From: Marsupella aquatica
Lineage: Eukaryota; Plantae; Marchantiophyta
Assembly (NCBI GenBank): GCA_973895155.1
Contig: OZ316893.1
Location: 11,165,660-11,229,659 of the forward strand
Length of the DNA stretch: 64,000 bases
Reading direction: 5' to 3'
Part shown: piece after piece, positions 38,158-64,000 of the stretch
Position numbering within the stretch: the first letter of the stretch is position 1
Layout of the letters: each line of letters begins with the position of its first letter
Made by a program: the position numbers and the translations under genes
Notes under the pieces: generated by a model
The model's database searches: none
The model's input: only the letters and a program-made list of their open reading frames with translations
Told to the model about the DNA's origin: nothing

Positions 38158-38600
38158 ATATGCTTGGGTGCTTTTTGTATGACCGATTAGATGCGTTTCT
38201 TAGAGTTTGGGTGAATCTTGGAGAAAGCGGGAAGCGGAAAATTCTTGCATGGCATGGACGAGTCTGGGTGGATGAGGCATTGCTGCAAATATCCGATAAA
38301 TTTATCGCACTCCTCATTCCTCTGGTCTATTTAGTAGTCAATTGATTTTAGTGGGTGGTTTTCTCGAGAAGAGCTTGTAAAGAAACATTTTGAATGTAAA
38401 TGACACTGAATTGCTTTGCCTGACTTCGGGTTGTGTGGTCCAGAGTGTAGTTTTTTGCGCATCTAAGGACGATTAGCTGACAAGTGCATGGCTTCACAAC
38501 CCGTTATACAAGGTACTATAAAGTTGGAATAAACTTGTAGAATTGGAATGAGTTAATGTTCTCCAAAATTTGTTCCTGATTTCCATTCGCTGATCAGGCC

Positions 38601-39074
38601 ATGCTCGAGCGACGCATTTTTGTACCCTTTGTCGATCCTCCGGAATGGGGGAATGGCGCTATGATGGACCAACTAAGGAGGCTGGATGAATCACTAATTT
38701 TAAAGATTTGCAGGCTGGTCACAAAACCGTTTTATAATAACGCATTTCACTTCTACGTAGACCAGGTAGAGGGAGAAATCTATATCCGGTGGGATAGATA
38801 TGTTGCATTTTCTAGAAGAGTTATCCTGCTCTTTCTGAAAACCGATGCAGTAAAACGGTTTATACTGCACTGTTGTCATGTTGTCAAGGGCAATCCTGCA
38901 TATGAACCAGAATTCTATGCCCACAATAGACGTAGAGCATTCGATGAGATTCATGATGTGATTGACCAGCTGGACAATCCTCTTGCCACCAAGTTTTTGA
39001 TTGACACTGGTGGGAAACTATATTTGTACATGACTATCACGGGACTTGTCAACTCCCCCACGGCCTTTATGTGA
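38601..39074 (+). CDS. hypothetical 157-aa cargo protein of the outer element
   Basis: ATG-initiated ORF with globular, protein-like composition and an AATAAA downstream (~39186). No family recognised. Confidence 0.5.
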   Translation: MLERRIFVPFVDPPEWGNGAMMDQLRRLDESLILKICRLVTKPFYNNAFHFYVDQVEGEIYIRWDRYVAFSRRVILLFLKTDAVKRFILHCCHVVKGNPAYEPEFYAHNRRRAFDEIHDVIDQLDNPLATKFLIDTGGKLYLYMTITGLVNSPTAFM

Positions 39075-39642
39075 GTTGTTTAAGTTAGTCTATGTATGTT
39101 GCCTATGGACGAACATCCTTGCCAATGGTGAGATGTGTCAATGTTGCTCAAATGCTTGTTGTGACATTCCGTCACGCTGATATTCAATAAAAGTAGTGAA
39201 CCTTGAGACTGGTGATGTTGATTTCCATTGGCTGCATGGGCTTATGATCATAGCGTCACTCATATTCCCCGATGGCCCAAGAAGCTAATCTCTCAATATG
39301 TTGTAGCGCGGTTTGATCTTGAACAAGAAGCCTTAAGGGATGAGTCCAAAGCCTTATTTCTCTTTTCAAAATCTTCATGATATTAAAAAGTGTATACCAA
39401 AAAACCACCAAAAAATGGTATGTATTTTTCAAACTAGACTCAAGAGAATTTTACCACCAAAATCTAAGCATATCTTATATGATATTCTCACAATTGTATA
39501 AACCTTGAAATATGCACTTTATAAAAGTAATCAAAATCAAACTCATCGATCAGAGTTTAAGTCAAACTCAAAGTTTTACAAAATATAACCCAACTTAAGC
39601 CCAAGTGGTTTCAAATGCTACGAGTCCCTCTATTTATCTAGT

Positions 39643-42600
39643 CTAATCCAAAGGGACCGCTTCCCCTTCCTCGGTTCCGGAAGTCCCTGTCGTCAATTCT
39701 GGAACAATTGTGGCATCGTCAACCACGCTATCCTCTCCGGCCTGAGGAATGTCTTCCTCACTCTCCTCATCCATCTCCCCCTGTCCGTCTTCCTCTTCAA
39801 TGTTATCTGCAAGGTTAAGAATCCTCCCTTTCAACACACTGCTCTGTCGCTCGTCAATCTCAATGGCAACGCAATGTCTCCCCATGGCCAAGGAGGAGGT
39901 TGTCCCAGTCCCTGATCCTGAACAAATATCCAAAACCCAGTCTCCAACCTGACTAAAATGACTCACTTCCCAATCTAACAATGCACGTGGTTTCTGATAA
40001 ACATTCACTGCCTTGTTATCCCCGTTGTGTTTCAGCTTCTTAGTCACAGCTGCGCATACAACCACATTGTTCCTTGATTCATTTGTGTCAAAATTGAAGT
40101 GCTCCAATGACCGTTTACCATCCTGGCTGTGAAAGCCAATTGTAAAGCACTCAAAGTTGCTGTTCAATCTTGGTCCACCAGCATTCTTCACATTATCCTT
40201 AACCCTGAAAAGTCACAAAAAGTCAAGGAGTTATTTAAACTGAGAAACATGGTTCATGAAATCATGAATAACTAATAGTTGTTTTTTTCAAAAACAAATA
40301 TTTCTTACCACACACAATTCTGGAACCCTCCATTACACTCCGCTTTCAAAACGGTCTTGATGGCCTCATATTGGTCAAGGCTATGGTGAATGATAATACG
40401 CCACAACTTTGCAGTAGTAGCCACCTTGAACGATTGGACCATTTTTGTGATCTCCTCAGTTCCCCATCCAATAGTGTCTTCATGAAGACATCCAGGCAAT
40501 GCAAACCCGTAGGGAATATCCACTAAAGCTAATGTGTAAGCCCGACCCGGAACCACCTCATGTAATCGCTGAGCATCATGAGTAAAAATATCATAGTGCA
40601 CATCACCAAACTCTGGATGCTCAAACGAATTTGGATGAAGTTCCCCCTCTTGGGTTTGCCGACTAGAAGTCTTCATGGATAGCCAATTTTGGGCTTGCAC
40701 AATATGCGCATTGAATTTGTCCGGGAATGACTTGAGATCTTTGCCTTCCTCATCTCCCTTCTTTTTCCGGGAGGTGGTATCTTTCTACAAAAAGGAACTG
40801 TAGAATTAGAAACAAGGATTCCAAATATTAAATGAATTCAAACAATCATTCGAAGAAAGGTGACAGAATCTTACCCATGTCTGGAAAACAGGTACGAAAT
40901 TCTTAAGCACATTGTCTGTGCAATTCTCAGGGTACTTGGTTTTACAACCTGACCAACTCTCCTTGTGTAGACACGTGAGGAAGGCCTTCTGCACCTGCAT
41001 CTGAAATTTGTGTCGAGTAAATTCGTGACCCATTTCCTGTAAAGAGAGTTCTTTAGTAAGAACTCTCTGTAACACTGGGCAAATCATATCAGGATCTTTC
41101 AAGGCCTGCATGTGTCTCCACTCTGTTAATTTCATGTCCTCATAAGGCAATTTGGCATCTCCAGACTTAGAGACTTTCTTCTTGCCTTTGTCTCCTTTTT
41201 GACCTTTGATCTCACACATCTCCCACTTGTCACAAATCTGCCTCACAAATGACCACACAGGATCTTGTCGGAATGCCAACTGAAATAGGTTATCATTGGC
41301 ATTAAGAACCTCAGCATCCTTTCGTACACCCCAATCCTTGAGATTGATTTCAGTAGCACACTCTTTCTTGAAATCCTGGTTGGACGACAATCCATTCTCA
41401 ACAAATCTCATGTGAATATAATTTACTCTCTGGATTGTCGTCATCTGTTGTCGAAATTCAGAATCAATATTGTGACTCCACGCCAGGTTTCTTGCCTCTT
41501 GCACACTCAATCCCGCAAATATCCAAGATTGCACTCTCCGAAATGCCTTGTTGTTAGGGAACTGAAGAGCAAGGTCTGCTTTGGCACAGGCTGAATGGTT
41601 GCCCCCAATCACATAATAATGGTAATCAGCTTTCCTTGAAAAATCAAAGTCTTGCCTAGTAGCACACTCCTTCGGATCCACCAAGAGGACAAACGGAGCT
41701 GCAAGTGGACTGGCACCTACAGTCTTCATCCGCAAGGTCAATTGGGTCAAGAAATATGGTTGGATGTGTCGGACCTGGTAAATGGGCAAGCCCACAGCCT
41801 TCTCTCTCACTGGAGGGTAAAGTTGACCAATGTCAACGGTCACGGTCTCCTCTTGAACACCACATCTTCCCAGAATCTCCTCCTGGTACAATACCCGTGC
41901 ATCCATTGACATTGATTGAGCCTTTTGCTCCAAATGCGTTGGAATTTTCTCCAAAGTCTTCTTTTTTGACTTTGTAGCACTGGGCTCGGTAGGCTCAGGA
42001 GTCATAGCAGGTCGCTTCTTTGAAGAAATGTGAGTTCCAGTCGTACCTTGTGCCGACCCACCAGTCAAAGCCGTTCCCTGGGATGATTTGCCAACTTGAG
42101 ATCCCCCTCCAGATGCTGCTGCTTCCCGGGAGGTTGTAGGCGCTACCACGGTCAAAATATCATTGGGTAAAATGCTAGGCCTCGATCCAGAAGGAACACC
42201 GGAAGCCCCAGATTTGGGTGGACGACTTACTCCCTTCTCTGCCGACCTTTTCCGGAGAATCTCTCTTGATTTTCGGATTGCACTCTTTAAAGTGCTAGCG
42301 TGAAATTCAAACACAAAACCGGAAATCTTTCCCGCAACGTCGTGGTAACGTTCCTCACTCGAAAGAGACTTGACAGTCTCAATGATGCTATCGATGTCCT
42401 CATCGAGATAGCAGGTGGCAGCCGTTCCAGAAAACCTCTCCACATCCACGACAATCAAAGTTGATGTTTCCTTCGTTGTGATCAACATGTTCACAACTTC
42501 GTCGCCCCGTCAAAATACATCGATGCGGCCGTAATTTACCCACCCTAATGCCCCCGATGGAAGCCCCTCAAATACACACAGCATTAGGAAGGGCTTCTTC

Positions 42601-42704
42601 CATGTTTCCGTCCCTAAGGAAATCGTCCAGGATGAGTTGTGGAAGTCCGTCAAAGGATGGCGCGAAAAGATGTCATCCACCAGCTCTTCCTGCGACATTG
42701 TCAT
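39643..42704 (-). CDS. ParB/Srx-like domain fused to a beta-class N6-adenine/N4-cytosine DNA methyltransferase, 3 exons, one upstream in-frame stop
   Basis: Exons 42704-40875, 40784-40309 and 40204-39643 splice in frame (GT-AG), about 955 codons. There is a single TGA at 42512-42510, and a downstream ATG at 42488 leaves both domains intact. ParB-like part: QVRHI...APFVLLVD...YYVIGGNHSACAK. MTase part, with catalytic motif IV before SAM motif I (beta order): YTLALVDIPYG...CVWVK...YQKPRALL...GDWVLDICSGSGTG...MGRHCVAIEID. Confidence 0.88.
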
Positions 42705-45700
42705 GTTTTTGCCTGATCTTCAAACCTGAGAACATACCACAAAATCAGTCCACTTCAACCCCAACCTGCGAGACAAAGTGCCACAGAACCAAGGAATGTG
42801 CCAACAAATGGCTACTAAAACCGTGTCCTTACGGATCTAACAACGCTCTCGGCCACCCCAGGACTCCTATCATGAATTCATGAAGGGAGTCTCCCTCTCG
42901 CTCCGACCTTCATGAATTCATGAAGGGAGTCTCCTCTCTCTTTGCTTGTACACCTCGGTGATGCAGAAGGGTATTTAAAATAGGGTTCGGAGGGGGGTGA
43001 CATGAAGAAATCACCCAGGGCCTAAATTACTACCTAAAACAGGGTCGAAATGAAGTGCGACCGCGACAACTCGCGACACGTCGCCGATGAGTGCTGAAAA
43101 TGGCACGAAATTGGACAGCGAGATTGTTTTTCACTCTTTTACAAAGGAAATCCAAATGACATTGAGTGAAAATGAATGGGCTGCCCCGTGTTCCTTGGTT
43201 ATACATACTAATCACGGATCAGGCGCGACTTAGTAAAATTAACCCAGAATCATGATAAATCAATGTTTTTGGGCCAATTATTCATGAATATTTCGGGGTA
43301 TTAACGGGAAAAAGCTTGCAAATTTCATGAATATTTGATATTTTTGAAGTTAAAAAGTTCCAACAATCCGTGAAAAACTATAAATAGGCTCGTTTATTCA
43401 TGACTCTTGGTCATTATTTTGAGAAGATTTGTTAGATTTTACTGATTTTCTGAGTTTCTTGTCAATTTGCACTAGTTTTTCCAATGGCGGCGTGTTACGA
43501 ATCAGATGATTATTCAGATGGAGTTTCTGATGATGTTTCATTGCCGGATGGCCCCGGCACAGTGGTTGGCCCAGATATCCCTGGAATAACTACTGTTTTA
43601 GATATGCCACCCCCCACCCCTATGAGCAAGTTAAAACATAGTCCTTTACGACTTGCAATTAGTGGGAAGAAATCATTGGTCGGTGGTAAAGAGAGGTCAG
43701 GGAGCTCCTCTGACTCCTTGGAGAGTATTGGTCCCCCTGGACGTCAAGTTGTATCTCCTTTGTCACCAACAAAGGACAAATTGGGGAGTAATCTGGAAGG
43801 TTCAATGCCTATTTGGATGTCTGGGAAACGGTCTCATGAATTCATGAAGACTGGATTTGGAAAGACGAAGAAGGCACTAAGTGGGGAAAATGACAGAGAT
43901 TTTTGCAGTCTCCAAAGTGTTCAGCGGCTGAAGCAAATGCCAAAAAGTAAAACCTTTGGTAAGCCAACGTCGGAAACATTTCACAGGGGGATGAGGGAAG
44001 AAACTAGACGACCAGTGTTATTGAAAAGTATTCCAGAAAAGAATTCTAATGTGCGTTCCTCAGTTTTACCTAGGAGTCATGGTGTTGGGGCAAGGAGCGG
44101 ATCAAGTCACGGAAACTCAAACAGGGAAACCAACCTGGTGGAGAGGGACCCTAGGAAAATATTGAAAGGGTCCCTACACGGTAATGGAGGGATTTCTGAA
44201 ATACGCCCAGGTATTCCAAGGGTGCATAGAGTGAAGGAAAAGCCTCCATCTCCGAAGGCTGCAGGTCTGGAATCTAGGCATGTTCAGAAGCAAATGTTGG
44301 TGACCATTTCATCATCGAATGAAAGCGAGTCTTCGGAGAGTGGGGAGGATGATGATGTTCTGGTGGCATCTAGTCGTTACAAACGTACGAGCAACGCCAC
44401 TTTGTGTGAAACAAAGTTGAAAGAGGAGGATATCAAGAAAACAAATAGTAAGTACTGTTGTCAGAGTCATTGTCTCCTAAGTCTATCTCCAAAAGAAATT
44501 CGTGAGGCGCGTTCTAAATTTTTGAGGCAGAAATCTCAGGATCGATCTTTATCTTTGCAGTGGCTTATAAAGCGAGACGGAAATGAAGGAGGGAGGCAGA
44601 CTATATCTTACACGTTTGGTCAAAAGAGTATTTGTCGGAAAGCTTTCAAGCTTATATTTTGCGTTGGCAATCATAGATTAAATAGAATTTTGAAATTAGA
44701 CAACCAAGACTTAGGATATTCTAAACCAGTTGGACGCCCTCCATCTGTTAAAAGATTAGTCTTGGTCAGTTGGCTTAGGTCGTTTTTTGAGACACGCGTG
44801 GAAACATTGCCAAATAAAGAAGTTTCACATTTACCGGATAATTATTCAAAGCTGGAGGTATGGAAGATCTACGACTCCAACTATGCCAAGATTGATGAAT
44901 CTTCAAAAATATCCTATCGACAATTCTTGAAAGTTTGGGTTCAAGAATTTGGTCATGTGAAGATTCCTCCAGTCAATCGATTCAGTGCTTGCGCGGATTG
45001 CGAGGAGTTCAAATCAATTCGGGACAAAGCTGTCTCGGAGACCGAAAAGAGTAAGTTACTTACAAGTTTGACAAGTTTTTGTTTCAAGAATATGGCTTAA
45101 CACATGATTTCTAATTTTTTTTGAAGAAACTAACAAGTTGTTTTTCCAGGGCGAGGGGAAATTATGTTACAAAAACATAGAGACCAACAATCCAAAGAAC
45201 GTGAGAAACTCGCGAAGCATCGTAAGAAATGTTTTTCAAATTCTGATAAATATTTGGGAGTTGTCATTGATGGGATGGATCAGAAGAAGACAAGGTTGCC
45301 TCATTGGCCGCGGCCCCCAAAATCGGTGGACGAAACATGTTTGATCCAAATGCACGTTGTCGGATGCCTGGTTTTCAATGGTGCACTATTTTCAAGAGTG
45401 TTTCTTAATTATCCTGTATTGCATAATGATGGAAACTTGATAGTCACAATCCTGCAAAGGGTGTTTCACGAATGGGAAGAAAAGCCTGGTGGCTTGCCGC
45501 CTGTTCTCTATCTTCAACTTGATAATACCAGTAGAGAAAATAAAAATAATTTACTCTTTGCCTATCTTCATATGTTGATTCGAAGAAAGGTTTTTCGGAA
45601 AATCAAACTAGGATTCTTGTTGGTTGGACACACACATGACCAAATAGATCAAATGTTCAGTCGATTTTCTAAACGACTAGCAAGGTTTAAGGCATTCACA

Positions 45701-46985
45701 TACGAAAGCCTATGTGATATTATTTGTGAATCATATCAACCCCAACCAAATATCACTCTTTTAAAGGAAACATATGATTTCCGTCAATATGCCTTCTCAG
45801 ATCCACCTTTAGTCATTGAAAGGATTCGAAATGTTACCTTCCACCACCAGTACAAATTTGCATTTGACAAGTTGGAAAATCAAGTTCCAACCCAATGGGG
45901 GAAGAAGTTTTCCACGGACTCAACTTGGAAACCTGACGGAGGCGTGAAATTTTTGAGGGAAGAGGAGCCAGAAAAGGTGATGGGTTGTGCTCCCGGATTA
46001 CCCCTTTTCAAAAAGGGGGATAAGAACGTTACAAGGACTCAACCAAATATGTCTAGTTCTTCAAGAATGACTTTGAAGGAGATGGATGATTCGTTAAATG
46101 AGATTCAAAAGGGAATACTTGCAGTTGAAACTTTATTCTCAGAAGAGGAAGTGAACTGGTGGAGAATGTTTTTTGAAGAGCAACGGGAATTGAATAAATC
46201 TTTGCTCCTTGATCAAAGACCATTGATTTTCCCTTTTCAATGGCCACGCTCCCAAAGGGAGATTGCTGTTGCTGCTGAAGTTCCCAGAGTCCTTGTCAAT
46301 GAAGAGGAAATTGAAGAGAGAGTATACGGACCTACCAGAGATATATACGTGGGTCCTTATCGGAATCAAGGAAAGATAGATGTAGAGAAGGAGAATATGG
46401 AAGGAGACTTTTCGGATCTTGAAGTCAACACTTATATTTCTGTTGCTGGAGAAGAATCGGAAACATTTTGGGTGGCCAAGGTGGAAAGAATTGACCAGCG
46501 CGACGAGTTCAACATTCCAAAAATGATTTATGTTTTATGGCATGCTACAAAAACCGGGTCAGATCCTTGGAAAGCCAAGTACTTACCAGAAGTCTTAAAC
46601 TACGAAAAGAAGAAAAGTGGTCGTGGGAAAGGAACTTTGAAACCAATATGGTTTCACCAAGAGCTTGATTTATCTTCAACGACTGTTTTTGCTTACAACT
46701 TCATGTTGACAAAATCTGATACATTGTACAAAAAGACAGTAGATCGAATCAAAATCCGATTGACTGAATTTTTGGCAGAAGAGAAAGAGCAAGAACAAGA
46801 GAATGGATCAACTAGAACCCCGCTAGGAGATAAATCTAGGGATATTTCGTTTCAAGAATTGAGGACTTCTGGATCTGAGTAATGAAAAGTAGTTATTGTT
46901 TGTGACATTACCATTGAAAAACATGGATAACTTGAAAATTTACAAATTTTCAAAATGCCTTTACCACTTATTCATGAATTCATGG
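40254..46985. repeat. dispersed 14-bp palindrome TCATGAATTCATGA (inner element)
   Basis: Perfect at 42870, 42910 (within a ~40-bp tandem duplication in the divergent promoter) and 43834. One-mismatch copies at 40254 (MTase intron 2) and 46972 (downstream of the transposase). Half sites near 39375, 43250, 43282, 43325 and 43398. Confidence 0.8.
43484..46882 (+). CDS. Sola1/DUF7869-like DDD transposase, 2 exons, apparently intact (~1099 aa)
   Basis: Exons 43484-45050 and 45150-46882 join in frame (..EK-R-RGEIMLQKH..). Catalytic-type motifs VIDGMDQ, LQLDNTSRENKN and GFLLVGHTHDQIDQMFSRF. Cys clusters CCQSHC, ICRKAF and CADCEE, a disordered N-terminus and a beta-rich C-terminal module. Confidence 0.88.
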
Positions 46986-47741
46986 TTAAAGTTTCTTGAG
47001 AAATTTGTAGTTTAATATTATGTTAGTGGGTTGTGTTTCAATTCAATTAGATGGTGTCATTTCTATTCTCTTTGTCTTCTTTTCACAATAATGTGTATCA
47101 GGTTAAGTTATAGTAATTTATTTTCTGGTTTTTAAATGACAATGGCTTTTGGAGGTGATTTAGTTGTTGTTTCAAAAGACACCTCGTGTAATTGTGAGAC
47201 CATTCTAGATAATAGTGTTGTATTTGAGATCATTTATTGGTGGAATGTAACTTCAGATGAATTTGGTCATTTTTAGGTGTCAAAACATAGCTAGTTTATG
47301 TCATATTTTGTTCGCTCCATATTTTTGCTCTAAAATAGGTGCTAATTTTTGCACTTTTTTGGACTTTTTCGTTGTTTTTCTGATTTTTTGGCTAGAGTTC
47401 CTAAAGTATGGGCTTGTTACTCATCATTTAAGGCTTCTTGTTCTTGGATGGGATGATTGATTAGGCACATTATCACATGTACACTCGACCGTCAATTTAA
47501 AAAAGGCTCACATTTTGTTTGGACTACTTTTGCGATAATTTTATCGGTGTTGGTATAATTATATTGAAACTTGAATGACCCCGTCTTGAGTTGAGCAATA
47601 AAATTATCGTCATCTGCATTGCGGGTCTCTTGTCCTTGTGTGTTATGAGATGTTGTGTTACATTTCCACATGTGCTATGAGATTGGCAACGATAATTTTA
47701 TTGCTCTTTGCATTGGAATATGTTTATTTGCAGACTTTGCC

Positions 47742-50700
47742 ATGGCTGCTAGTGGAAAGAGTGGATCTGCCGAGGCTGAAACTCTCATGACAAGCCTCAC
47801 CAATGCAATTTGGATGTGTGAAGACATTTGTGAAGAGGTCAAGTGTATCAGGAAGCCATGGTACTTCCGTGACACCAGATTAGAGTCCACGGGTTTCCAA
47901 GATTGTAATACCCCAATCCTTTGGGTCCAGTTGCAAAAATCTGCAAAGGTTAATGTTTTGTATGGCCCTGTGATTGCTGTGGCCATCTGTGAGTTCATGG
48001 TTGGCCACGGGGAGGGAAAAGTGTTGACAAAGGGCCTTAGTTTCTTGACAATGTGTGGACGCAAGGGTTTCACATCTCTCATTGTTACTCTTGACAACTT
48101 TGATGAGAAATCTGTTGACAGTTATCCAGAAGATCTCCTTGTCGCAGAAGTCTGGACAGCAAGAGAGATGAATGTTATGGGTTTGGCTTGGGTGTGCCAA
48201 TATGTCCAAGATTGTGATGCTATCATGCTACCAAGGGTGAACTCAGAGTACAAGAGACTTGTGGGTGAAGAGTTCAAACCTGTCCGGAAAATTGTTTTCA
48301 AGAAACCTGGTTCAAGCGGGAGTGGTGGTTCTTATGTCAATAAAATGTCGGGCCGTAAAGAACCATTACAAACCTCTCCACCTATTGATGTGGACGAACC
48401 CGCAACTTCTGGTCGGGTTTCGGGAAGTGGAAGAGGGAAAGGGAGAGGTAGCAGGAGGGGAGATGCCGCGGGAACTTTTGACGGTGGGAAGAGGAGCCAG
48501 GAAACTGGCGGTAGTGGAAGGGGCCGGGGGCAATTGTCGAGGACGTGCATCAGAAGCACCGTCCGTTAATCCAAGCAAAAATAAAGGATCCGAGGGATCC
48601 GGGCCATCTGGTTCTAGACTTAGCACAAAGAGGAAGAGAACTGGCTGGAGTGAAACGGTCGCTCTAGAAGTAATTAGAGCTCCAACTAATACATTAATTT
48701 CTCCAGTTCCAGTCGCAGTTCCTATGATGCCACTGGTAAGTATTACATTGTTCAGTTTTGTTGATCAAATGTGGATTCCGATAAAAATCTCGCTGTTTCT
48801 TTCGGCCTCATTCACAATTGGAGGACCCAAAAGGAACGTCACACTCAAAAGTGATCATAGTTTATTATGCTTTAGGATATCATTTGTAGGGTGTAATGAG
48901 ATGATATAGAAAATTTGATGTACTATACTTAATAAACATCCTGTAGGTTCATAACATTCATTAAATTATCTAGCATTTGAGACTTTGAAGATTTCCTTAT
49001 ATGTCCTTCAAAGATTGATAAAAGGACTTGTCACGCAACGAGTCACATCATTTCAGGACTCAAAAGGACTCTAAAAATTGCATTTTAGACAATGAAATTT
49101 TATCAAAGCATGCATACTAATAGAATAATCTTATATTTCAAAACTCAAATACTGACACACACTAAACCTTTATGTATAGGACAAAAATAATCATTAATTT
49201 TGGCTTATTTAGGGCCAACAATAATAGGATCCCTTAAAACAGTTGAAAACTTGATTTATCTACATGGTGAGGTAGGTTACACCATGTAAAATCGTCTTGT
49301 GAAAAAATTAGAGTTAAATGTCTTTTTCACGTTACAAAAGTCATTATTCACTAAAAAAACATGTTTTTGAGTCCTGAAAATGGTTCCTGCGAGGTACACC
49401 CAATTGTGAATGAGGCCTTTCCTTAATTGAATTTGCAATGTTTTTTGTGGACAAATGCGGATTCTGATAAAATTCTCGCTGTTTCTTTCCTTAATTGAAT
49501 TCACAACATTTTTTGTAAGCTAATTAGGAGGAGGAGACAACTCTTTCAATGTATGAGACTGATGCCATCAAAGCAGAGCTCAGTCTATTGATGCAACAAA
49601 GGGTGCAAAGGACAACTAAAGTATCCTTCTGCATGTCAACAATCTGATATTTGATGAGGAGGGGGATATGTCAACTTTGATTAGACCAGTGGATAGATTG
49701 CATGTGGAGAATATCAAGATACTTCTCATGAAAAACCCCACGAACTTCAGTGCACCGTTCGTGCTGTGTGTGGATCCGGAGGATTGTCCGAAGATTGGGA
49801 CATCCTGAAGTCAAGGGTATGGAAGTATAGAATTATTGGAGGGAATCATGGTGCTCGGGCAAACTCCAACTTGTATAAAATGTATGGCAAGCACATTTAT
49901 GGTGAGCTGGAAGCTTGGGTTCACGCTGGGTTTACAAGATCCAAGGTCCAAAAGTTGGGCTTCCAGCATAATTATGACCAGGAGTACGTAATAGGAAGAA
50001 CATGACTCATATTGACCAAGTTCGTGCTTGTCACAATATTTATCTTGAAATGGGTGTGGGCTCGAATAAAGATGTTCGCAAAGCATGTTGTGAAGAATGC
50101 ATGATGGATTACACGCCAGGCGTTCGTGACTCCATGGCCAAACATGACCCAGCTTTCCAAATTGCTTTCCAAACAGGTGAAATCAGGGATCTTCAGGAGA
50201 AAATTTTCCAGATGTGGGAGAAGGGTATTGTCTTAGGACAACCCAAAAAAATTGTGGCAATGAAGAACGCAAAGGGAAAGGTAAAACCTTTGACAATAAG
50301 GGAGATTAAAATGAATAAACTTGCTAGGGACCTCAACTTAAATTCACTTTGAGGTCTACAAGGACTGTCAAATAAGGAGCATGTCAAGTGTCTCTTGAAT
50401 AGGGTTATCGGGAAGGTGATCACTTTGGATCAAATGCACAAGGAAGGTGAGAAGCTGAAAAAGCTTGCCAAGGTGAAGAAACTATTTTTCAGATATCTGG
50501 TCAGCCAGATTGGGCAACGTGCAGAGAAATGTTTCCCACTAAAACATATGTTTCGGTCCTTGGCATATGGGCTGAGAAATTGAGTGACGCGGTAAGCATT
50601 CCTCTGACCGCAAGATTTTTATCGGCTTTAGCATTCTATTTGTAGGTTTCTAAGCGATTGTATTTATCGGCGATAGGATTTCATTTGTAGATACGCATGA

Positions 50701-51913
50701 TGCTTATGGGCTATCGTGTTCCATCACAAGATTTTTATCGGGTTTTGGATTCATCTCACGTTATTCTAACTGGACATGTGTGTGACAATTGTACAGCTGA
50801 AGATTAGTTCAAAAAGGAAAAACAAAGTGGTTCCGGCTATCACTTATAATTCTGTGGGGGAGGTTATTGTTCTCTTGGCTGACATCCCATATGTGTTTAA
50901 GAATTTTGTGCTTGCTACAATCAATAGGCACAACCGGCTACAGTCCTTAGGCCAGGGCACAGCAGAAGCGTTGGAACAAACATGGAAAAATGCTGATGGG
51001 GATTCTTTCCCCTACTATCTCCATGTTGGGGATGTTTGAATTTTGTATTCTTTTGTTGAGCCAAGGGCTTACACCCTTGCGGTCGCGGATATTCCCTATG
51101 GTTTTCATGCTCTTGGTTCGGAGTGTGATGAAGTGTCCTTCGCAGAAAAGGACATTTTAGATATGGTGACAAGTTTTTCAAAGATGACAACCGCTAAGCA
51201 ACTGGTGCAGGTTTGTTGTGATCCATTCACTACAACAAACTCATATGGTGATGTCTGCACTTGAGAGTGTATGCAACTGTGGGGTCGAGGCTGGAATTTG
51301 GGAGAAGACTAACATTCATGAGCGTCCTGCTGGCGCTCGATTGGCGTGGGGTTTTGAGAACTGGTCGTTGGGTTTCTATAGCGAGGAAGGAATTTGGAAC
51401 ATGACACATGTACAATTTCCAACTGGATGAGTCTCGCGTCAATATCATCAAGGTTCCATGTGTAACCAAGAAGCCCGTTGATCCGTTGGGATGTGTTGTA
51501 AACCCGTACTGAAGCCTGTTGGTTTGGGGGCTTGGTTTGTTTCCCATTTCTCTGAGAAAGAGGATTGGGTTATAGATCTTTGTTGTGGAACCGGATCGAT
51601 GTTAGCTGCTACGCTCCTCAATTCTTGCCAGGGTTGATTTGTCGATAAGAGTTCTGCACAGATTGATTTTGTGAAATCTTGGATCATGACTCTGGAGTCA
51701 AACTGGAATTTATTTGCGGAATCCCAGATTGAAGGGCACGGTGTTGAAGGTCATGAGATTGAACCACCAATTGCAGGCCAGTTGGGTGTTCTCGGGACAT
51801 TGACTTACACAATTGAAGTCGTGAAGGTGACCAAAGAGGAACAAGAAGCAACTGAGGAAGAGCCTCCTAGAACACCAAATGAGGATGATCTCAACGACAT
51901 GTTATTAGATTAG
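47742..51913 (+). pseudogene. decayed paralog of the ParB-like/DNA-methyltransferase fusion (outer element)
   Basis: Frameshifted pieces colinear with the inner copy: LIRPVD...SAPFVLCVDP, YRIIGGNHGARA, QHNYDQEY..MTHIDQV, AYTLAVADIPYG, IWEK, KPVGLGAWFVSHFSEKEDWVIDLCCGTGS (~51512-51600), acidic tail. Probable first exon 47742-48735 and introns ~48736-49527 and ~50592-50797. Confidence 0.85.
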
Positions 51914-52074
51914 TTAGTCAAATGTGCTAGTTAGAATTTCTTGGCATCATAGTCATGCTGTTATCAATGAGGAATAGAGTTGTCGATAAATTTATCGGAT
52001 TGTGTATTCCATCAAGAAGAACCGTTGTAACCTTTGTTCATGCAATAAATTTATCGGACTTTGCATTCCATCAA

Positions 52075-52320
52075 GAAGCACTTTGCATTCCACGCTCTAG
52101 CTATTCCACTCCCTTCGCTCTAGCTATTCCACTCCCTTGTTTGTCACGGTGTTCTAGCTGTCAAATGGAGTTGTCAATAATCTTATCGGACTTTGCATTC
52201 CATGTTCTAGCTATTACACTCCCTTGTTTGTCACGGTGTTCTTGTTGTCACGGTGTTCTAGCTGGGGGAATGAAGTCATCGATAATCTTATCGGACTTTG
52301 CATTCCACGCTCTAGCTCCA
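52075..52320. repeat. tandem repeats between the convergent genes of the outer element
   Basis: gactttgcattcca, ctagctatt(c/a)cactccc, ttgtcacggtgttct and ataatcttatcgg each recur 2-4 times. Confidence 0.7.
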
Positions 52321-52485
52321 CAATAATTTCAAAAAAATTTATCATTATAGCTTTAAAGAACGACATAGTCCAAGATGTTCACGATTGCAACCATCCTCAT
52401 GGGAACGATAACTATTATAACTTAAACCTTTACACTAGCTTCTACTATCAACGACTACAATGTCCATCATTGCATTTTGAATGAT

Positions 52486-55400
52486 TCATCTTGTTTGTAC
52501 AAGGAGAGTACTATTTGCCAATAACGCAAAGTTATACGCATAAACTGTAGTTTTTGCTAGGGATAGTTCATCCTCCAGTACTTTATTAGACAAAGCCTCT
52601 TTCTCCGGATAATATTTGCCTTCAATTGTAGACTCCTCTTTGGAATCCATTGCATACCAAGTGATTTTAATTTGCTCGAGGATGTTGTTAATTTTTGTGA
52701 GAATCTCAATCACTTTTGCCATCTTCCTTTGGATCCTGATGGGCTGCTACACGTACATATCATTGCAAATTTAGTATTCACCTCTAGATCCTTGAAGTCT
52801 CCAATTTCCGTGACTTTTCTCCGACTTCCGGAATACATGACTGTCCTCACACCCGCTATTTTATCAACCAAGATAGGTTCCATTGTTGCTTCTGTAGGAT
52901 TGGTTGTAAGTTCTCTTTGTATGTTTACCTTGGGCCAACTCCAATCAAAACTCCATTGTGCAGGTTTCAGGTGGTGTTGAATCACTTCTTATAGTTTGTC
53001 AAAGAAACGACCCCACCATAGCCGATCTTTGTCATCAAAGTAATTGAATCCATCTTCAATTCCTCTTCGATATTTTTGAAGAGTCGAAAAATGATTTTGC
53101 GCCGCCCGCTCATCTTGTTCCTCAGTATCATTCTCTTGATCATCATTGTCTCTTGTCGCTCCCATGGCCGACTTCAATGTCATTTGTGGTGCGACCCACA
53201 TTCCAGATGAAGGAATGTACCGAACAAATTCCATGGGCTCCCCCCAATCTGTTGTCGTTGAAAGATGTTTGGCATGGAAGATAGACCAAGCACTTCCATC
53301 TTCGAGTACTCTCGTAATCCAAAATTTTTCTGAGCACTTATGCCGTGGAGAGTACGCAAAACCTGACCATCCATATCAAGGTTGTTATTTGCTTGATCCT
53401 TGTCAGACACAAATTTTTGAAATCAGCAACCTCATCGACAAAAAATATCTTTGCCGTAGGATTGTAGGATTCCTCTATGATTAATTGCGGAAAGAGTGTC
53501 AAACCAAAAAGCTTTTTGCTTGTTCAATTTTGAAGAAAACTTGCTAAACATTTGATCAATTTGGTCATGGGTGTGCCCCACCAACACAAAACCAACCTTT
53601 ATTTTCTGGAAAACACCTATCTCCACCAACATGTTCAAATATGCCATAAGATATTTATTCTTGTTTTCCTGAGCAGTGTTATCAAGCTGGAGATAAAGCA
53701 CTGGAGGGAGCGGACCTTCCCACGTATTCCGAATATGTTGAATAACGTGGATGGTCAGGTTGCTATCATTGCAAATATTTGAATAGTTCAAAAAAACATT
53801 TGAACTCAATTGTTTGTTGAAGATCAAACAACCCACTACGTGTATAGGGATGAAATACTTCTCATCCATATTCTTTGGACACCAAATGAAATGAGGTAAC
53901 TGTGTCTTCTTTTGATCCATTCCATCAATACAGATGCCCAAATATTTCTCCGAACTCTTGTAACATTTGCTCCGGTGCTTTGCTAACTTCTCCCTCTCCA
54001 TTGTTTGTGCCTTCCGATACTCGTTTAGCAATGTTGAGAATTTTCCTACAATAATAAAAATGTTTAGAACTTTTCTGGCCTGACAGCGATAAATTTATTG
54101 GGTTCAATATTCAAACACTTGATTTGATAACCGCAATGTTAAACCGTGACAACGATAAATTTATCGGGATAAGTATTCAAACTGTTCAAACGATATATTC
54201 ACACACATTACCAAAGAAGAAGCATGGGAATACTCAACCTGATAAAATTATTGGGAGTAACACATGGGTTTAGAAACTTACTCTTTTCTGCTTTGAGTGT
54301 TGCCTTATCACGTAGTGCTTTGAATTCAGTACACGGGGCGCAGGTGGAGAAATGACTCCTTTTGGGGATGCGCACGCGAGGAAACTCCTTGTTCCAAATG
54401 CGAACAAACCATGAATATGTCACGCCTTGTTCTTGGCGCATTAGAGTTTTAGAACTTAGGAAGGCATCAAAAACTTTAGTTTTTGTCCAATTGTCAGGTA
54501 AATGAAAGATATCCTTGTTGGGGAGACTCTCTACATTTGTGGTAAAAAATCATCGAGACACTGAACGAGACCAAGATGTGCGGACAATTTTTCTCTACAA
54601 AATGTATCGATCTGAATCCGAGAAAACATGTTCTTTGAGATTTTTTGGAGACGATTATTTCCTAAGGAAAATAATTTCTTAAAACCACTCCGACAAAAGG
54701 ATCTACCGCTAACTGAGTAACCACTTGCACCGGCATGCCCACCCTTCACACATCCTCTTAGAAGTACGTTCTTTTCTTGGTAAAATAGCCCATAGTAATA
54801 TGTGCGTTGTTTCATCACATCCTGCAGACCCAAATTCCTCAGACAAAAATTATCACAACAGGGATACTTATAAATTTCTTTCATTTTGTTTCTATTCAAT
54901 TTATCATTTATCACATTGTCTTTCGTAATAATTTGGTCTCTATCTTTTTTACTAGGTTCATTTGACTTCTCTATAGATTGACATCCGATGAGAACATCAA
55001 TTGACATTTTTGGGTCCTTCAGGTACCTCGCGAATAGATGCATCACTCTCTGCTGACCTACCATCCTCCACAGATCTCCTCGCCGGCGGAGGGGCATTGA
55101 AAAGGCAACTATAACTATTCTCTTCTATAGCTCCTTCTAAACATTCAGACATAACTTGTGCTATGATATCGGATTTTGTATCTCCTTCCTAATTTTTGTC
55201 CTCTTATCCACTCGACTCATCTAAAAACACAATTGGACTTCGTGGCTCTCTATACATAACCCGAACGCCACTAAGACCTCTCCTTGACACTTGGAGCTTG
55301 GAACCAATCACAGTCCGCCCTGGAGAACTTGGAGAACTATTCACACGTGCAGTCCCAACGACTCCGCGAGCTGCAGGAAAACTGAGCACTTGTTGACCAC

Positions 55401-55950
55401 AATTCCCACGGACCATTTGGGAAAGGGCCAAGTCTAGACTTTGCAATCCAATTCCCTCGCTTGCTTGCACATCTAGTCTAGGCAATGCAAAGACCGATCG
55501 CCGTATCGGTCTTTGTATCTGCCTCCTGATCCTCACCCGGAGACTGAAAGATCCGTCATTGAACGTGTGTTGAATGTGGTAACTTGAATGCCAAGTGCGA
55601 TACGCGTATTGGTCGCCGGATACCCTCTCCATAACCCGGGATGGATGGCCTAAAGCGACGTCTTGGACCTAAACCTGGGATTGAAAGTTTCTCATTTCTT
55701 GGCGATGGAACGCTCAAGAGACGACGCTTCTCAGGTTTACTAGGAGACACATAGTAAGAACTGGACTCAGGACCAAAACTTGCATCAGAATCTGAATCAG
55801 CGTCAAAGATTTCGAGCACTATCTACTGTGAGAGAGGTAGCTTTAAGTATGCGACTTGGCAAACACCGAGCGACAACATTAGGGGAGGATTCAACTAAAC
55901 TTGAAGGTGAATCTGTGTCTGATTGAGAGATGGCTATCCGAGACACTATG
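52486..55950 (-). pseudogene. decayed Sola1/DUF7869-like transposase (outer element)
   Basis: GICIDGMDQKKTQLP, LQLDNTAQENKN, GFVLVGHTHDQIDQMFSKF, CCDNFCL, FCRSGF, STCAPCTEFK and TTVYAYNF all match the inner transposase. The intron is at the same position (EK-a|gtaag near 54280). Many frameshifts and stops. Confidence 0.9.
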
Positions 55951-55973
55951 GGGCTTTGTATTCCTCCCTCAAT

Positions 55974-56165
55974 CTTGGGGGGATCACTGTATGTAGGGCT
56001 CTACATCACGTGCAGCGACGTTTTAGGGTCTGGACCCCCTAACTTTTAAGTGAAATTTGTTTTTCCCCACTCCCTTACTTTCTGAAAAGCGACCATTTTT
56101 TGAATTGTTTACCCCTATAAATTTTTATGGAAAGTTTTATGATGATTTAAAAAATGCCTATTAAG
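55974..56165 (+). mobile_element. terminus related to the CTCGGGG MITE family (truncated copy or end of a larger element)
   Basis: cttggggggatcact...gcgacgttttagggtctggaccccctaa...acccctataaa resembles the first ~190 bp of the MITE. No matching second TIR or TSD in the window. Confidence 0.55.
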
Positions 56166-58142
56166 GAAAGTTAAGTAACTCAATAGTGTAGAGCCAATTG
56201 ATGCAAATTGATACATTCAATGAATTTACATCATGAAGCTGAATATCTTGTAAATATCATCCAACAACTTGTAGTTTTCACTCTTGAATAGTGAAGCATG
56301 GTGGGTGCTAGATACTATGAATAGGTAAACAACATAGGTTGCCTATTCAAGGCATCGGTACTCTACCTTGTTTCACAAACTCTCGCATGATGATGTCCAC
56401 ATCTCTACCCTCCTTCACAGACTCATGCATGATGATGTACACATGACGGAGGGGAATTGAACCCCTGATTGAGCATAAATCTCAATTTGCCAATTTGCCA
56501 TCCCCTACTCTACTCCCTCCCACTAACCCTACAAATGCATCACATACACACATAACAAACTACTTTTAATAAACAATAGTAAATTATATATCACAATTTA
56601 CTCACATTTTGAATGTATGTAGTCAAAGCCTGCAAGTCACTTGTATCTAGTACATACACTCTGTCAACTATCCCAGACTTCATTGTCAAGTTCACATTTG
56701 AAATTACCATCTCAATATCAATCCATTGTCCATCTGTTGCATCATAAGTGAACAAAGTTTCAATTGTTGTTACGAGTAGATTTGTACCAATTACACTGCA
56801 AGCGGCACACACTTCCACTCTGTCCAACTGTAGGTACAGGCCTATCCAATAGATCTATTGCTTTTCGACGTCTGACCCAATGGGAGCCATTCTTCTGTAT
56901 CAGAAACTCAATCCTACCCAACCAATATTCCTTCTTTGCAGATGTTGCGTCAACAACAGGCCCTTTATCTATTCCCTTCCTCTTTTTTGACTTGGATGAT
57001 CTGGTAGAAGGACCAACCTCTGCAGCAAACTCAAACAAAACTGCTATATCAGTACCAATGTCAACCAAACAAGTCACAAAGTCACCATTTTCCTTCTCCT
57101 TACCAGTAGTGTAATAGGTCTTTTGGGCTATCCTAGTTAGCCTATCCTTTGACATGAAAGGATTGCAGCACAATTGACTCACAAGAGTGGACTTGTAGAT
57201 AGTCCTTCCCTCATAAGTTACAGTAGACACTACTGACCGGGGTGTCTGCACATCAGCTAAGTTTGCTTGAACTCTAGCCAAGACATGCCTTACTTCATGT
57301 CCTAGTGTCTCCATCTCACAAAATGGGTTAGTGTCCACCTGAGCAATCAAACAATCATCAACTATTAGTGGCTCAATACAATCCTGACTGTCCAGAGTGT
57401 CCCATGAATCAATCCGATTGAGATCTTCTTCCGGATCTTCAAACTCTAGAAACTCTCCAATTGGGGGCTCAAGTCTAGGGCCTACAGTAGATCGATGCTC
57501 AATTGTGTCTTCAGCATCATCACATAACATAGCCTCTTTCATGACACTTGTATCCGGCCAAGTCTCTGCCTCCACCTCCCAAGGATGAACCCACCATCGT
57601 CTTTTCGCTGCTGGCAAAGAACTCCTTGGTGACATGTTCAGTTTGCACAACAAATACTTTGCTTCCTGCAAACCTTCCTTTAGAGCATCAACAACCAGCT
57701 CATTAGTCTGAATTGCAGAGTAATCAAATAAATTTGGAGCTTGTTCTTCTTCATCCAAAGGATGTAAAGTTGCCCAAACATGATCCTGTTTAGATCATGT
57801 GATCGACGTATCTTCAATCCCTCTGGTCCATACTCTAATCCAGCTAGTTGATTCAGTCCCACTGCACTGTCCAGTAGAGATCCAAAGTCATAATTTCTCT
57901 CATGGCCACTCATGCCACCTACCTTGCTGAAAAATATCTCACAACAATCTGATCCCAGCAAGTGAAATGGAACTTGTAGATATGGGAACTTGTCCTGAAA
58001 GGCACAGATTAACAATACTACAAAATGACAAGACATGTTGATATCATGGAAAGCCTGCACAGAAATCATGTTCTTCTCTGTGATAGATCCAGCATTCCCT
58101 GTCACAGAATGATCACCATACCTCAACCATAGCCTCCACAAT

Positions 58143-58431
58143 CTCGGGGGTCTCACTATATGGATGTCTCCCCATCCCCTGTGACGTTTTTAGGCCTCAG
58201 ACCCCCTAAAATGTAAGAATTTTTTTGTTAAATTTTTCAACCCCTATAAAGTTGGAATATTCCAAAAATTTGGTTAGAAAGACCCTAATGTTCTTATAAG
58301 TCTCAAAATTGAATTTAAAGGACCCTATTGTTCTTCTACAAAAATTCTTAAGTCTTCCCTTCAAACCAATAAATTGACCCTATACTTCGTCGCACGTGAT
58401 GTGCCATTTTTGTGGAAGTGAAACCCCCGAG
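58143..58431 (+). mobile_element. MITE of the CTCGGGG family (289 bp)
   Basis: Same TIRs as 33968-34264 and a perfect 8-bp TSD TCCACAAT. Removing it restores FFRLWRLWLRYG in the P-like transposase. Confidence 0.93.
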
Positions 58432-58971
58432 TCCACAATCGAAAGAACCAAGATACCTTTGATGCAAAGACAACACGGGTTCTTAGGTCATGCTTAACAG
58501 AGAAGAAAATATCTATGTAGTCTGCACAAACCTCCAAGTATATCATGGTCCCAAAGCTTTTGTCATGACGAACATCTTGTCGCTCATACATATGCTGCAG
58601 GCAGGCCTGCACTCTCCTGGAAGCTATTTGTTGTGGGCCAGCCCAGTTTTGTCTATCTGTCCTATTCACATCATCCCAATGCAAACCATGCTCATGAATT
58701 GCATAATGGTTATAAACAGATGTGACACAATTATGACAAAGATGCATGCTGATCACCAAGAACTAACATAGCAGACACTCAGTCCAATGGGTTAATTGCC
58801 TTCTTGCCATTGTGAGGTGGGTCTTGGTCTCCAAAACCATAGAAATCTCCATTCGGAAGTATGGACACTGAGTATTGCCACCCAACCCATCCTACACTGT
58901 ACCTAGGAAAGGAACCATTCACAGTAGTATAATCTTCCATCATCAATTTCCTATGACGAGCATCATTCACC

Positions 58972-59266
58972 ATCGGGGTCCTCACTTCTTTTCTTCCGAC
59001 CCATCACTCGCGAATAAGTATAGGGTTTTTTATTGGGTTTAGTGAAATACTTTTAAATTTTTGTTGAAGAACATTAGGGTTATTTTAATCCAATTTTGAG
59101 AATTATAAGAATCATAGGGTTTTTTAAAGTCAAATATGGGAATATTCCATTAAGTTAGGGGTTACAAAATTCCTAAAAAAAACTTTATTGACTTAACTTT
59201 TAGGGTGTTTATTTCCCCAAAACTTTGGGCGTGATATGGGACACCCTTTGGATTGAGGCCCCCGAG
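58972..59266 (-). mobile_element. diverged subfamily MITE of the CTCGGGG type (295 bp)
   Basis: Ends atcggggtcctcact ... ttgaggcccccgag with an 8-bp TSD CATTCACC. Inserted at the SDG motif of the P-like transposase. Confidence 0.85.
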
Positions 59267-61904
59267 CATTCACCATCACTAGCATGGCCCAACAAAGGAC
59301 CAACATTGTCTCTGCAATGTGTGTCCCACATGGACTTCAGCTGCACCCAATGCTCTCTTACCCAGGGAGCTCAAAACTTGTTACATGTTGGTAGAACACA
59401 CAATGCCAATTTAGGCATCTTTGCATGCAGAGGATTGACAATGATTACTCTAGCATACATGCCTTTGGCATATTGCTCAAAAGTACTTACAATCTTGTCA
59501 TACCCTTCAGTACCTACTCCAACCAGTACTTCCAAGCCAAAAGAACATGTGTGCTCTTCTAAGGGGCCACAAAAACCAATGAGGGTGTCATATTTAGCTT
59601 CCCATCTGTCACACACAATAGAATACAGACATCAGCTCATGACATGCAAACTCACCCAACACATTAAAAAAAACAAGCTAATTTACTACAGAGACAAAAA
59701 CACAAACCTGGGTCTCTCTTTGATCCTTGTTTCATCCTCAGCAAACATTACTGGTACATCTCCTGCAATTCCAAGTGACTGCTTTGATGCACACAGTACT
59801 CTGCACACCTCCTCGAATATCTCTTTTCGAATGCCAGCTCTAAAGGGTGGGAGTTTTGCTCTATCACATTTCACGGTCTTTAGACCTGGACCACCTAGGT
59901 TAGCTTGGAAACAATGAACCACTTGTCTGCCTCCAAACTGAAACATGGCTTGGGAGAAGGCCTTGGTTCTCTTACTGTATCTATAACCCTTAGCAACTCT
60001 CTGCAAGTTCTTAGCTACATCTGTCAGGAAATCCCACAACCCTTCCTTGCCACAAAAAGCACCACATCTATGTCCATTCATAATATTTCTCAGAAACAGT
60101 CTTAAATCTTTCCTATCATGGGCTACTCCTAATAAATCTTCTAGCTTCTTTCGCCTAACACTCAGGGCACAAATTTTCTGAGCCTGTTGTGCCAACAGCC
60201 AACGCTGTTTCCTAAAGCGAGTGGTGAGGTTACCAACATGTTCCCTCAGTTTGGTTTCGGTCAAGTATGCCAACCTCATCCCACCCTGTGTAGTCCTGTC
60301 TCCTCTCTGCACTAATGCTTCCGCTTCCCTATGCACCCTGCCATGAAAATCATCTTCACATTTTATAGAATCACATAATGCAAGTGAGGTTTTGAAAACC
60401 ACCTCCATTAATGGACACCCTGTGACATTGCTTGTGCCTAAAACAACCCTGTATACCAACAATTAACTGACTAGTTACATTGAAAACCTCAGCATAGGTT
60501 GTACGGTCACAATCTCACACATTTCCTCCCTCTTGATCATCAAGTATGCCTTTCACAACCATAGAATCCTCTATCCACTTCACCTCTGACTCCCACAGGC
60601 CCCAACAAAGCAAACTTAAACTTGGCTCAATGGAGGAATACAACCCACCTCTGCCTGAACTGCTCCCTGCAGCAGAGCTGTCCTCTCTAAAGAAATTCAG
60701 AATAGAATTTTGAGATGGAAACAGATCACGAGCATCAACTTCCTTGGTCTGCCCTCAGTGCAGCCTGGGTACTAGTGACAACGTTCTCAAGTGCATCCAT
60801 ATGATCCCGACTGACAAGGTGTTGCCTTAAATTGTGTTCCAAATTGGATTTCTTAGGGCACATGTCAGTATGTAGCTTGCCATAGACTGTACATCTGACC
60901 TTAAACAGGAATGACCTTTGTGCAAATGTTGGATCAGTGGGAGATGGTGTGATAGCTAGAGAACACTTCTACCACCCCACCTACCTCTGCATTCAACTTT
61001 CCCACTATTTCCACACCAGCCCCTATTTGCATACTATGATCAAACAATGGTTGTTGTATAGTGTCAGTAGCCGTCACCAAAGCTCCAGGTATACCCCTTC
61101 GCTTACACCAGTTCTCCTTGTGTTTAGGGTTGGTCAGGTGCTTTGTCTTGAAATTGCTAAAGCAATTTGCGATGGACTTGAGCACCTGTGAATTGGCTAC
61201 ATTCCCATAAGTCTCCCTACACTCTAAGCATTCTAGATGACCTCGACACTCCCCTCCCTCATCCCACGTCCGCACTCTCCACTTGTGCTCACCAAAGCTC
61301 TTCTGGTTTACCCAGGATCGTAGCTTCAACCACTCATCATTCCAGGTCTTTGATGCAGCCTCAGACATGAGGTGAGACTCAAAGGAGCCTGTGACAGGCG
61401 GTACAAGAGCCTGTGACAGGCAGTTCAATAGCCTGTATAGGCACCCCTTCTGTTTGTCCTTCAGTCAAGGGAATTGTGCCTGCCAAATTGGACACAGTGG
61501 CAGCAGATGAATGAGAGGAACCAATTGTGACCCTCTCAATTGGCAAGGCAACTGAGGGTAACTGTGCAATCACGTAAATTGTCCCTTGAATTTCAGTCAC
61601 CCCAATAGTCTTCTCTGAAAAGCGCCGGCTCGACCAGGCAACCTCTCATCCCAAAAATCAAAGTCAAACTCTACTGCACCTACACATTTCAGACAGAAAT
61701 CTGCCAGAGTCTGCCCTTCAGACAGCAATCTGACAAAGCTCATGCCTAGGTGTGCCATGATGGACAGTTATACAGGCTGTGAAAGTAAGGGACAGGGATT
61801 AGGTAGATGAACCTGTCATACAACAATGGACAGACATGGAAAAAGATCAGGACTCAAGTCAACCATTCACAATGTCATCTGAACACTCAATCTATTGTAG
61901 TCAA

Positions 61905-62055
61905 TGAGACTTACTTAAGTCCATTTCAATTCATCAAAATTCCATTTCGTTCAAGCAAATACTTAAGTCCATTTCATTCATCGAAATACTTAAGTCGATA
62001 GTATGCAACCAAATACTTAAGTCCATAGCCTTCAACCAAATACTTAAGTTCATAT
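61905..62055. repeat. short tandem array aaatacttaagtcc (about 5 copies)
   Basis: The palindromic core acttaagt recurs at roughly 20-45-bp spacing between the PHD pseudogene and the P-like transposase. Confidence 0.7.
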
Positions 62056-62133
62056 AATTTAGGTTGTCTTATGGGTCCCATACAAAGAAGGTTCAAGTTA
62101 TAAGATGGTGAAATCAATAGCAGTCATGCTGGT

Positions 62134-63998: not shown

Positions 63999-64000
63999 GT

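Follow-up and report, generated by a model that had tools for sequence, protein, structure and literature searches.

Two nested elements in the window

The window analyzed in this study is a 64,000-nucleotide stretch of the genome of the liverwort Marsupella aquatica (assembly GCA_973895155.1, contig OZ316893.1, positions 11,165,660 to 11,229,659). The segment at 47.7-56.0 kb forms the right-hand portion of the outer element, a Sola1-like DNA transposon in which a second element (the inner element) is inserted. Each element carries a transposase gene and a gene for a ParB-like protein fused to an amino-methyltransferase (methylase). The outer methylase pseudogene lies on the plus strand at 47,742-51,913, with predicted exons at 47,742-48,735, 49,528-50,591, and 50,797-51,913. 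The outer transposase pseudogene lies on the minus strand at 52,436-55,973 (DUF7869, E = 2e-42), with a predicted intron at 54,281-54,046 and a 5' end that reaches at least 55,973. The spacer between the two 3' ends (51,914-52,435) holds four palindrome copies and no terminal repeat. All introns in this study were predicted from splice signals and homology.

The inner element occupies 39,322-47,442 (8,121 bp). It has AACA..TGTT termini, imperfect inverted repeats of ~32 bp, and a 4-bp target duplication, CTTG on the plus strand, at 39,318-39,321 on the left and 47,443-47,446 on the right; an empty-site contig shows one copy. When all AAC..GTT pairs to the right of 30 kb were scanned, only its ends paired at 14/14. 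Ends of GAAC..GTTC and a 2-bp duplication had also been considered for it, but AAC..GTT with CTTG was preferred. A weak AAC..GTT pair at 52,543-62,050 (11/14), which begins within the transposase frame, was judged to be chance. Contigs of public runs join across the inner element, from 39,285 to 47,526 (runs X3 and X4) and from 39,293 to 47,438 (run X3). This indicates that other copies of the outer family lack the inner insertion. The inner methylase gene (39,643-42,698, minus strand; predicted exons 42,698-40,875, 40,784-40,309, and 40,204-39,643) has 953 codons, with one in-frame stop after 62 codons. The inner transposase gene (43,484-46,882, plus strand; predicted exons 43,484-45,050 and 45,150-46,882) is open and encodes 1,099 aa (DUF7869, E = 1e-50). 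The insertion target of the inner element was a member of its own superfamily. Long contigs of run X3 share ~99.6% identity with the inner element, with 1-6 differences for every 0.6-1.8 kb, which suggests that the inner family is young.

The outer element reaches leftward beyond the inner element to at least 38.3 kb and probably to 33.2 kb. Its left arm (33,214-39,321) contains eight copies of the outer palindrome, two open reading frames (ORFs), a 297-bp insert, and a very high-depth repeat. The left end at 33,214 is a candidate; it starts with AAC, as in the other termini. On the right, the contigs of public runs depart from the window sequence at 55,974, which is the site of another insertion. 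The sequence at 55,974-64,000 is unrelated and represents one or more insertions cutting the outer element; runs X1 and X3 have loose contig ends behind position 55,974. The right end of the outer element is not within the window, and the contig continuation past 55,974 matches nothing in the window.

Protein folds and motifs

Both transposase copies matched the DUF7869 profile. The structural model (predicted local distance difference test, pLDDT, 86) has an RNase H/integrase fold and matched PIWI, integrase, and RNase HI structures (best E = 3e-4). The Asp residues of DGMD, QLDN, and QIDQ are kept in 90% or more of 28 alignment rows and presumably form the catalytic triad of a DDD transposase. 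A 4-bp target site duplication is described for the Sola superfamily (PMC10741241), and a duplication of this type (CTTG) flanks the inner element. The inner termini are AACAA..TTGTT, the related loci L019 and L052 also have AACA..TGTT, and AAC..GTT occurs as in Sola1-1_Ec32 of the brown alga Ectocarpus. No matching target duplication flanks L019 or L052, perhaps because these assemblies are collapsed. From the duplication, the termini, and the RNase H fold, we infer that DUF7869 transposases are those of Sola1.

The inner methylase matched PF01555 (E = 1.6e-8; 35.3 bits against a cut-off of 26.7) and the CcrM model (E = 3e-10). Motif IV (DIPY) precedes motif I (DxxxGxG, binding S-adenosylmethionine, SAM), which is the order of beta-class enzymes. 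The nearest solved methylases for the homolog P0043 are DpnA and CcrM. The N-terminal part was modeled (pLDDT 85) as a ParB fold followed by a helical domain. Its top Foldseek matches were Noc and ParB (E = 9e-6 to 6e-4, 12-14% identity), and by sequence the ParB region had no match in Pfam, NCBIfam, or the Protein Data Bank. The canonical catalytic motifs are DPPY for N6-methyladenine (6mA) and SPPY for N4-methylcytosine (4mC) (PMC8885841). DIPY is present in both window copies, and canonical DPPY was found in distant homologs only. None of 37 rows has Ser at the first position, so the SPPY motif of 4mC enzymes is absent.

We found 219 cluster representatives that matched the ParB exon with E of 0.001 or better, including proteins of Riccia, Calypogeia, Adiantum, Ginkgo, Chara, and a hemichordate (P0128). 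The named homologs of the genes studied here come from liverworts, ferns, Ginkgo, and Chara. No longer fused methylase protein was found among 1,145 candidates, which is weak evidence, and neither gene had a match in viral contigs. A search of prokaryote genomes for a bacterial source, with one distant methylase as the query, gave nothing. P0027 (Chara braunii CBR_g41648) is an annotated protein with two consecutive ParB-methylase units.

Comparison of the inner and outer genes

The first-pass annotation had described the two genes as convergent in the outer element and divergent in the inner element, and we found the same: methylase plus and transposase minus in the outer element, methylase minus and transposase plus in the inner one. 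The diverged proteins were also said to retain GGNH, DIPY, DGMDQ, and GHTHDQID, and all four motifs are present in both elements. The inner and outer proteins are 54% identical in the transposase core (213 columns), 25% in the ParB-like region (269 columns), and 34% in the catalytic region (216 columns). Within the window, the inner-outer matches had E values of 6e-73 for the transposase core and 2e-18, 2e-10, and 8e-14 for parts of the methylase. Over their N-terminal 190 residues, the two methylases aligned no better than shuffled sequences (score 32 vs 25-39 in 20 shuffles).

The transposase intron, proposed to share its position in both elements, lies at the same codon and phase (A|GT); this position also occurs in L001, L039, and L051, which makes 5 of the 12 sequences examined. 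The methylases share one intron (phase 0, after the helical region) and differ in the others, again as proposed; in the alignment, the donor of the shared intron lines up with the outer-clade homolog P0020. The outer methylase lacks the inner CVW intron and has an extra predicted intron at 48,736-49,527 (plus strand, GT..AG ends) with two palindrome copies inside. Both points agree with the earlier description. About 647 bases of this extra intron are absent from the majority contig form (joint 48,803 to 49,451), and the match to the homolog P0032 starts exactly at its acceptor. Because the CVW intron is present in 8/8 third-clade loci covering the site, it is simpler to assume that the outer lineage lost it.

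The outer methylase is a pseudogene with at least eight frameshifts and three stops, which the first-pass annotation had not detected: seven frameshifts and two stops in the aligned parts, one frameshift in exon 1, and a stop at 51,037. The outer transposase is also broken, with at least five frameshifts and 3-4 stops. The majority contigs of run X3 bear indels at the outer frameshift sites. When the five listed indels were applied to outer exon 2, the number of stops fell from 10 to 1, and the listed contig substitutions eliminate two further stops. Changes from window A/T to contig G/C numbered 205, against 72 reverse transitions, as expected for a decaying copy. The majority contigs are ~25x deeper than the diverged single contigs; this would fit tens of copies per family, although contig depth is not a copy number.

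Lineage-specific palindromes

A predicted binding site, the outer palindrome CGATAAWWTTATCG, recurs across 33,663-54,253 in 20 copies with at most 2 mismatches. It has 21 matches in the window against 0.54 expected; 20 of them lie in the arms, introns, and spacer of the outer element, and the inner element has none. Its presence in the left arm, the introns of both outer genes, and the spacer ties both outer genes into one element. The inner palindrome TCATGAATTCATGA, also a predicted binding site, has five copies at 40,254-46,985 in the inner element (six window matches against 0.77 expected) and four copies in the inner relative L001. Other clades have different palindromes between their genes, for example L004, L020, L023, and L079. 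Each lineage has one private palindrome. "TAGTCC" palindromes in methylase-less loci proved to be coding repeats and were rejected as sites.

Related loci, gene trees, and selection

A metagenome scan with the transposase kept the best 80 of 238 confirmed stretches, and 79 related loci were examined. The methylase adjoins the transposase in 17 of them: 15 divergent, one tandem (L024), and one convergent (L039). The comparison of orientation across loci, suggested by the first-pass annotation, revealed three layouts, and the convergent L039 belongs to the outer clade. L039 groups with the outer element in both gene trees and has the same tail-to-tail pair on an independent contig; its transposase core shares 72% identity with the outer one and 58% with the inner one. 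L001, whose transposase core is 78% identical to the inner one, falls in the inner clade. The transposase tree strongly supports both groupings. The layout is tail-to-tail in the outer lineage and head-to-head in three others. The distant L079 (transposase core 37% identical) is head-to-head, and head-to-head is therefore likely ancestral; in the outer lineage, the methylase gene would have been inverted and the CVW intron lost.

Further pairs were found outside these loci. R1sor_010795 and R1sor_010796 of Riccia sorocarpa have adjacent locus tags. Two more pairs each have both genes from the same source and from contigs of equal length, and both genes of a charophyte-like pair fall in Chara clades.

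Several individual loci had features of their own. L079 (11-8,596) looks complete, with terminal repeats, an intronless 929-codon ParB-methylase ORF with DSMY, an extra 273-codon ORF, and 17 palindrome copies. In the tandem L024 (230-5,964), the methylase stands just before a same-strand transposase without its N-terminal part; this layout is either a second independent flip or a misassembly. L006, L007, and L071 have transposases with long tandem acidic N-terminal repeats and no methylase in the available DNA.

Sequences with fewer than 150 filled columns were omitted from the trees (14/201 for the transposase and 90/177 for the methylase), and the paired trees do not include L001 and L002, in which little of the methylase is covered. 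Comparison of the two trees, which the first-pass annotation had also proposed, did not give the incongruence that it had named as refuting. For 20 pairs, 9/17 splits were common to both trees, including every split with a bootstrap of at least 95 in both. In approximately unbiased (AU) tests, the three best clades found in one tree only were not rejected by the other gene (p = 0.44, 0.50, and 0.18). The correlation of distances (Mantel rho) was 0.91 for the 20 pairs (0/10,000 permutations), 0.60 within the large clade, and 0.69 for six deep lineages (30/720 permutations). There is no supported conflict between the gene trees. Agreement within one contig series and for two lineages in one genome suggests inheritance as a unit.

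In the large clade, the median omega was 0.077 and 0.11 for the two methylase regions and 0.071 for the transposase. The remaining pairs listed had nonsynonymous differences (pN) near 0.1 at synonymous differences (pS) of 0.5-0.95. The methylase is under purifying selection in the relatives (omega about 0.1). The earlier claim that selection has long kept this cargo stands for the relatives; it could not be read from the window itself, where the outer copy is broken and the inner-outer dN/dS is saturated (pS 0.73-0.84), as it is between the outer element and L039. The claim that the cargo is not a one-off capture is supported by the relatives, with their paired loci and trees without supported conflict.

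Other features of the window

A ~290-bp element with CTCGGGGG..CCCCCGAG ends occurs at 33,968-34,264, 58,143-58,431, and about 14,647-14,927 (79-89% identity), with 8-bp target duplications (AGACTCCG, TCCACAAT). One copy stands between the palindromes of the outer left arm. The left end of a larger element at 55,974-61,500 is related to it, and no matching right end is in the window. This larger element has broken minus-strand ORFs at 56.8-61.5 kb without a Pfam or NCBIfam match; we take their motifs to be reminiscent of P-element-like transposases.

The repeat at ~35,500-38,300 in the outer left arm has short tandem arrays and a contig depth 10-20x that of both elements (37.0-38.3 kb covered). 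It is probably a long terminal repeat (LTR)-type insertion; its ends were looked for and not found. The two left-arm ORFs (38,580-39,074 and 35,064-35,471, both plus strand) had no match among families, loci, or the protein atlas, and they are possibly further cargo. The contig depth of the ORF at 38,580-39,074 is similar to that of the rest of the outer element. The window is plant nuclear DNA, with laccase-like and Bet v1-like ORFs left of 30 kb. CpG observed/expected showed no difference between the elements and the flank (0.55-0.66).

Interpretation and alternative explanations

We believe that the 47.7-56.0 kb segment is best explained as a decayed transposon copy with a co-diversified ParB-fold methylase that likely marks its own element, and we give this explanation a probability of roughly 0.65. 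Its historical part, a Sola1-like cut-and-paste lineage of non-flowering plants in which the methylase diversified together with the transposase, is highly probable. "Old" here refers to sequence divergence and to the spread from charophytes to Ginkgo, not to a date, and horizontal spread may have taken place. The self-marking part, methylation of the element's own DNA, falls slightly short of even odds. The ParB-like domain would load at the lineage's own palindromes, by analogy with bacterial ParB at parS. The beta-class domain would then write 6mA nearby (motif D-x-P-Y; 4mC is possible), and this mark may protect the element's transcription or mobility from host silencing, or may time transposition. 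A wider version, in which streptophyte Sola1 elements have carried a self-addressed read-write system with anti-silencing 6mA/4mC on their own copies since before the land plant-charophyte split, seems doubtful to us.

A number of observations weigh against co-diversification or self-marking. No contig bridging the outer spacer was among the pieces listed, and the convergent layout outside the window was seen on one contig that has only the last 160 codons of the methylase. Because 13/17 paired loci are one clade from one contig series, there are only ~6 independent lineages. No methylase is seen at 62/79 loci, which are mostly short; the long ones (L056, L060, L069, and L070) are decayed or flanked by retrotransposon ORFs, and the methylase may have been lost from such loci. 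Eight of the 17 splits differ between the gene trees, with weak support, and shared ancestry of the hosts can also yield tree agreement. Usable dS was available in 2/78 pairs for each methylase region and in 13/78 for the transposase. De novo scans found no recurring palindrome in 5/14 paired loci (L008, L019, L024, L025, and L052), and the L039 palindrome consists of three degenerate copies seen by eye. The catalytic motif also varies over the 37 rows (DIPY, DFPY, DAPY, DPPY, DIPH, DFPC, and others); with this variation and DIPY in place of canonical DPPY, some members may be inactive.

Because DIPY is non-canonical, the main rival explanation is that the accessory protein is a DNA-binding or bridging helper of transposition, with the palindromes as its sites and the methylase fold as a non-catalytic or SAM-binding relic. 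Most plant members lack Pro at motif position 2 and some have no aromatic residue at position 4, the methylases of DIRS retrotransposons are described as likely inactive (PMC4738411), the palindromes are located in arms, introns, and spacers, and two-gene transposons also have a second protein. However, D, P, and Y and the SAM-binding D-x-x-x-G-x-G are retained in nearly all paired loci, and purifying selection on the catalytic exons is as strong as on the ParB region; we consider such a helper unlikely. It is less likely still that the methylase is a mobile cassette captured repeatedly by related transposases, so that the orientation difference arose from separate captures. The intron common to the inner and outer methylases, the absence of supported conflict between the trees, and the charophyte-like pair in Chara clades speak against repeated capture, although the N-terminal domains of the methylases do not align, three layouts were found, deep nodes are weak in both trees, and accessory genes of red algal transposons are described as crossing superfamilies (bioRxiv 10.1101/2025.02.11.637652).

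The first-pass annotation had also raised the case that the two outer genes belong to separate elements. As leftovers that became adjacent by chance, they would fit a right end outside the window and a left end that is only a candidate. This case is very improbable: the spacer has no terminal repeat with a target duplication, both genes share CGATAAWWTTATCG, L039 has the same tail-to-tail pair, and the majority contigs are similarly deep along both genes. We therefore treat the outer genes as one element.

Comparison with known systems

The VANDAL elements of eudicots encode VANC, an accessory protein believed to target elements of its own family via private motifs, as proposed here; VANC strips host 5-methylcytosine and is not a methyltransferase. 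A close likeness is Sola1-1_Ec32, a Sola1 transposon with a 4-bp target duplication, AAC..GTT termini (AACCG-CGGTT), and an opposite-strand accessory gene for a ParB-like and N4/N6 methyltransferase protein of 1,104 aa, against 953 here; its authors propose binding and modification of the element's own sequence (PMC12477816). Sola1-1_Ec32 is from a brown alga and has 21.5 kb and 282-bp inverted repeats, whereas the inner element is from a streptophyte and has 8.1 kb and ~32-bp repeats (PMC12477816). The available part of that account, compared by description, does not include co-divergence, selection, an orientation flip, or lineage palindromes (PMC12477816).

The accessory genes PAG2/PAG3 of Plavaka elements in Bostrychia are likewise long-kept, with a PF01555 methylase, a ParB-like domain, and inverted-repeat arrays nearby (bioRxiv 10.1101/2025.02.11.637652). 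They differ in having an EnSpm/Plavaka transposase and separate methylase-SET and ParB-2OG oxygenase genes, whereas ParB and methylase are one protein here (same source). MpDN4MT1a/b of Marchantia (bioRxiv 10.1101/2021.02.12.428880) and N4CMT of bdelloid rotifers (PMC8885841) are also bacterial-type beta-class amino-methyltransferases acting on eukaryotic DNA. By description, these are host genes with (T)SPPY and 4mC activity, in contrast to the transposon-borne ParB fusion with D-x-P-Y, and MpDN4MT1a/b have no extra domains (bioRxiv 10.1101/2021.02.12.428880). The part of PMC4738411 available contains no clade like the ParB-methylase studied here. No land-plant report of this pairing was found in the literature searched; the 2009 Sola paper and the 2011 green-algal review may mention plant cases. 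The design is already published for a brown alga (Sola1-1_Ec32), which limits the novelty.

The transposon methylase, an amino-methyltransferase of bacterial type maintained by selection in liverworts, ferns, Ginkgo, and charophytes, is a concrete candidate enzyme for plant 6mA/4mC. Where 6mA and 4mC in plant DNA come from and what they do is under debate. The lineage-specific palindromes offer exact sites for long-read kinetics, and the nested pair is a built-in specificity control, with two proteins and two palindromes in one genome. If the wider version given above holds, plant genomes would receive amino-methylation from transposon-encoded enzymes, and the two nested elements would be read-write systems whose addresses do not overlap.

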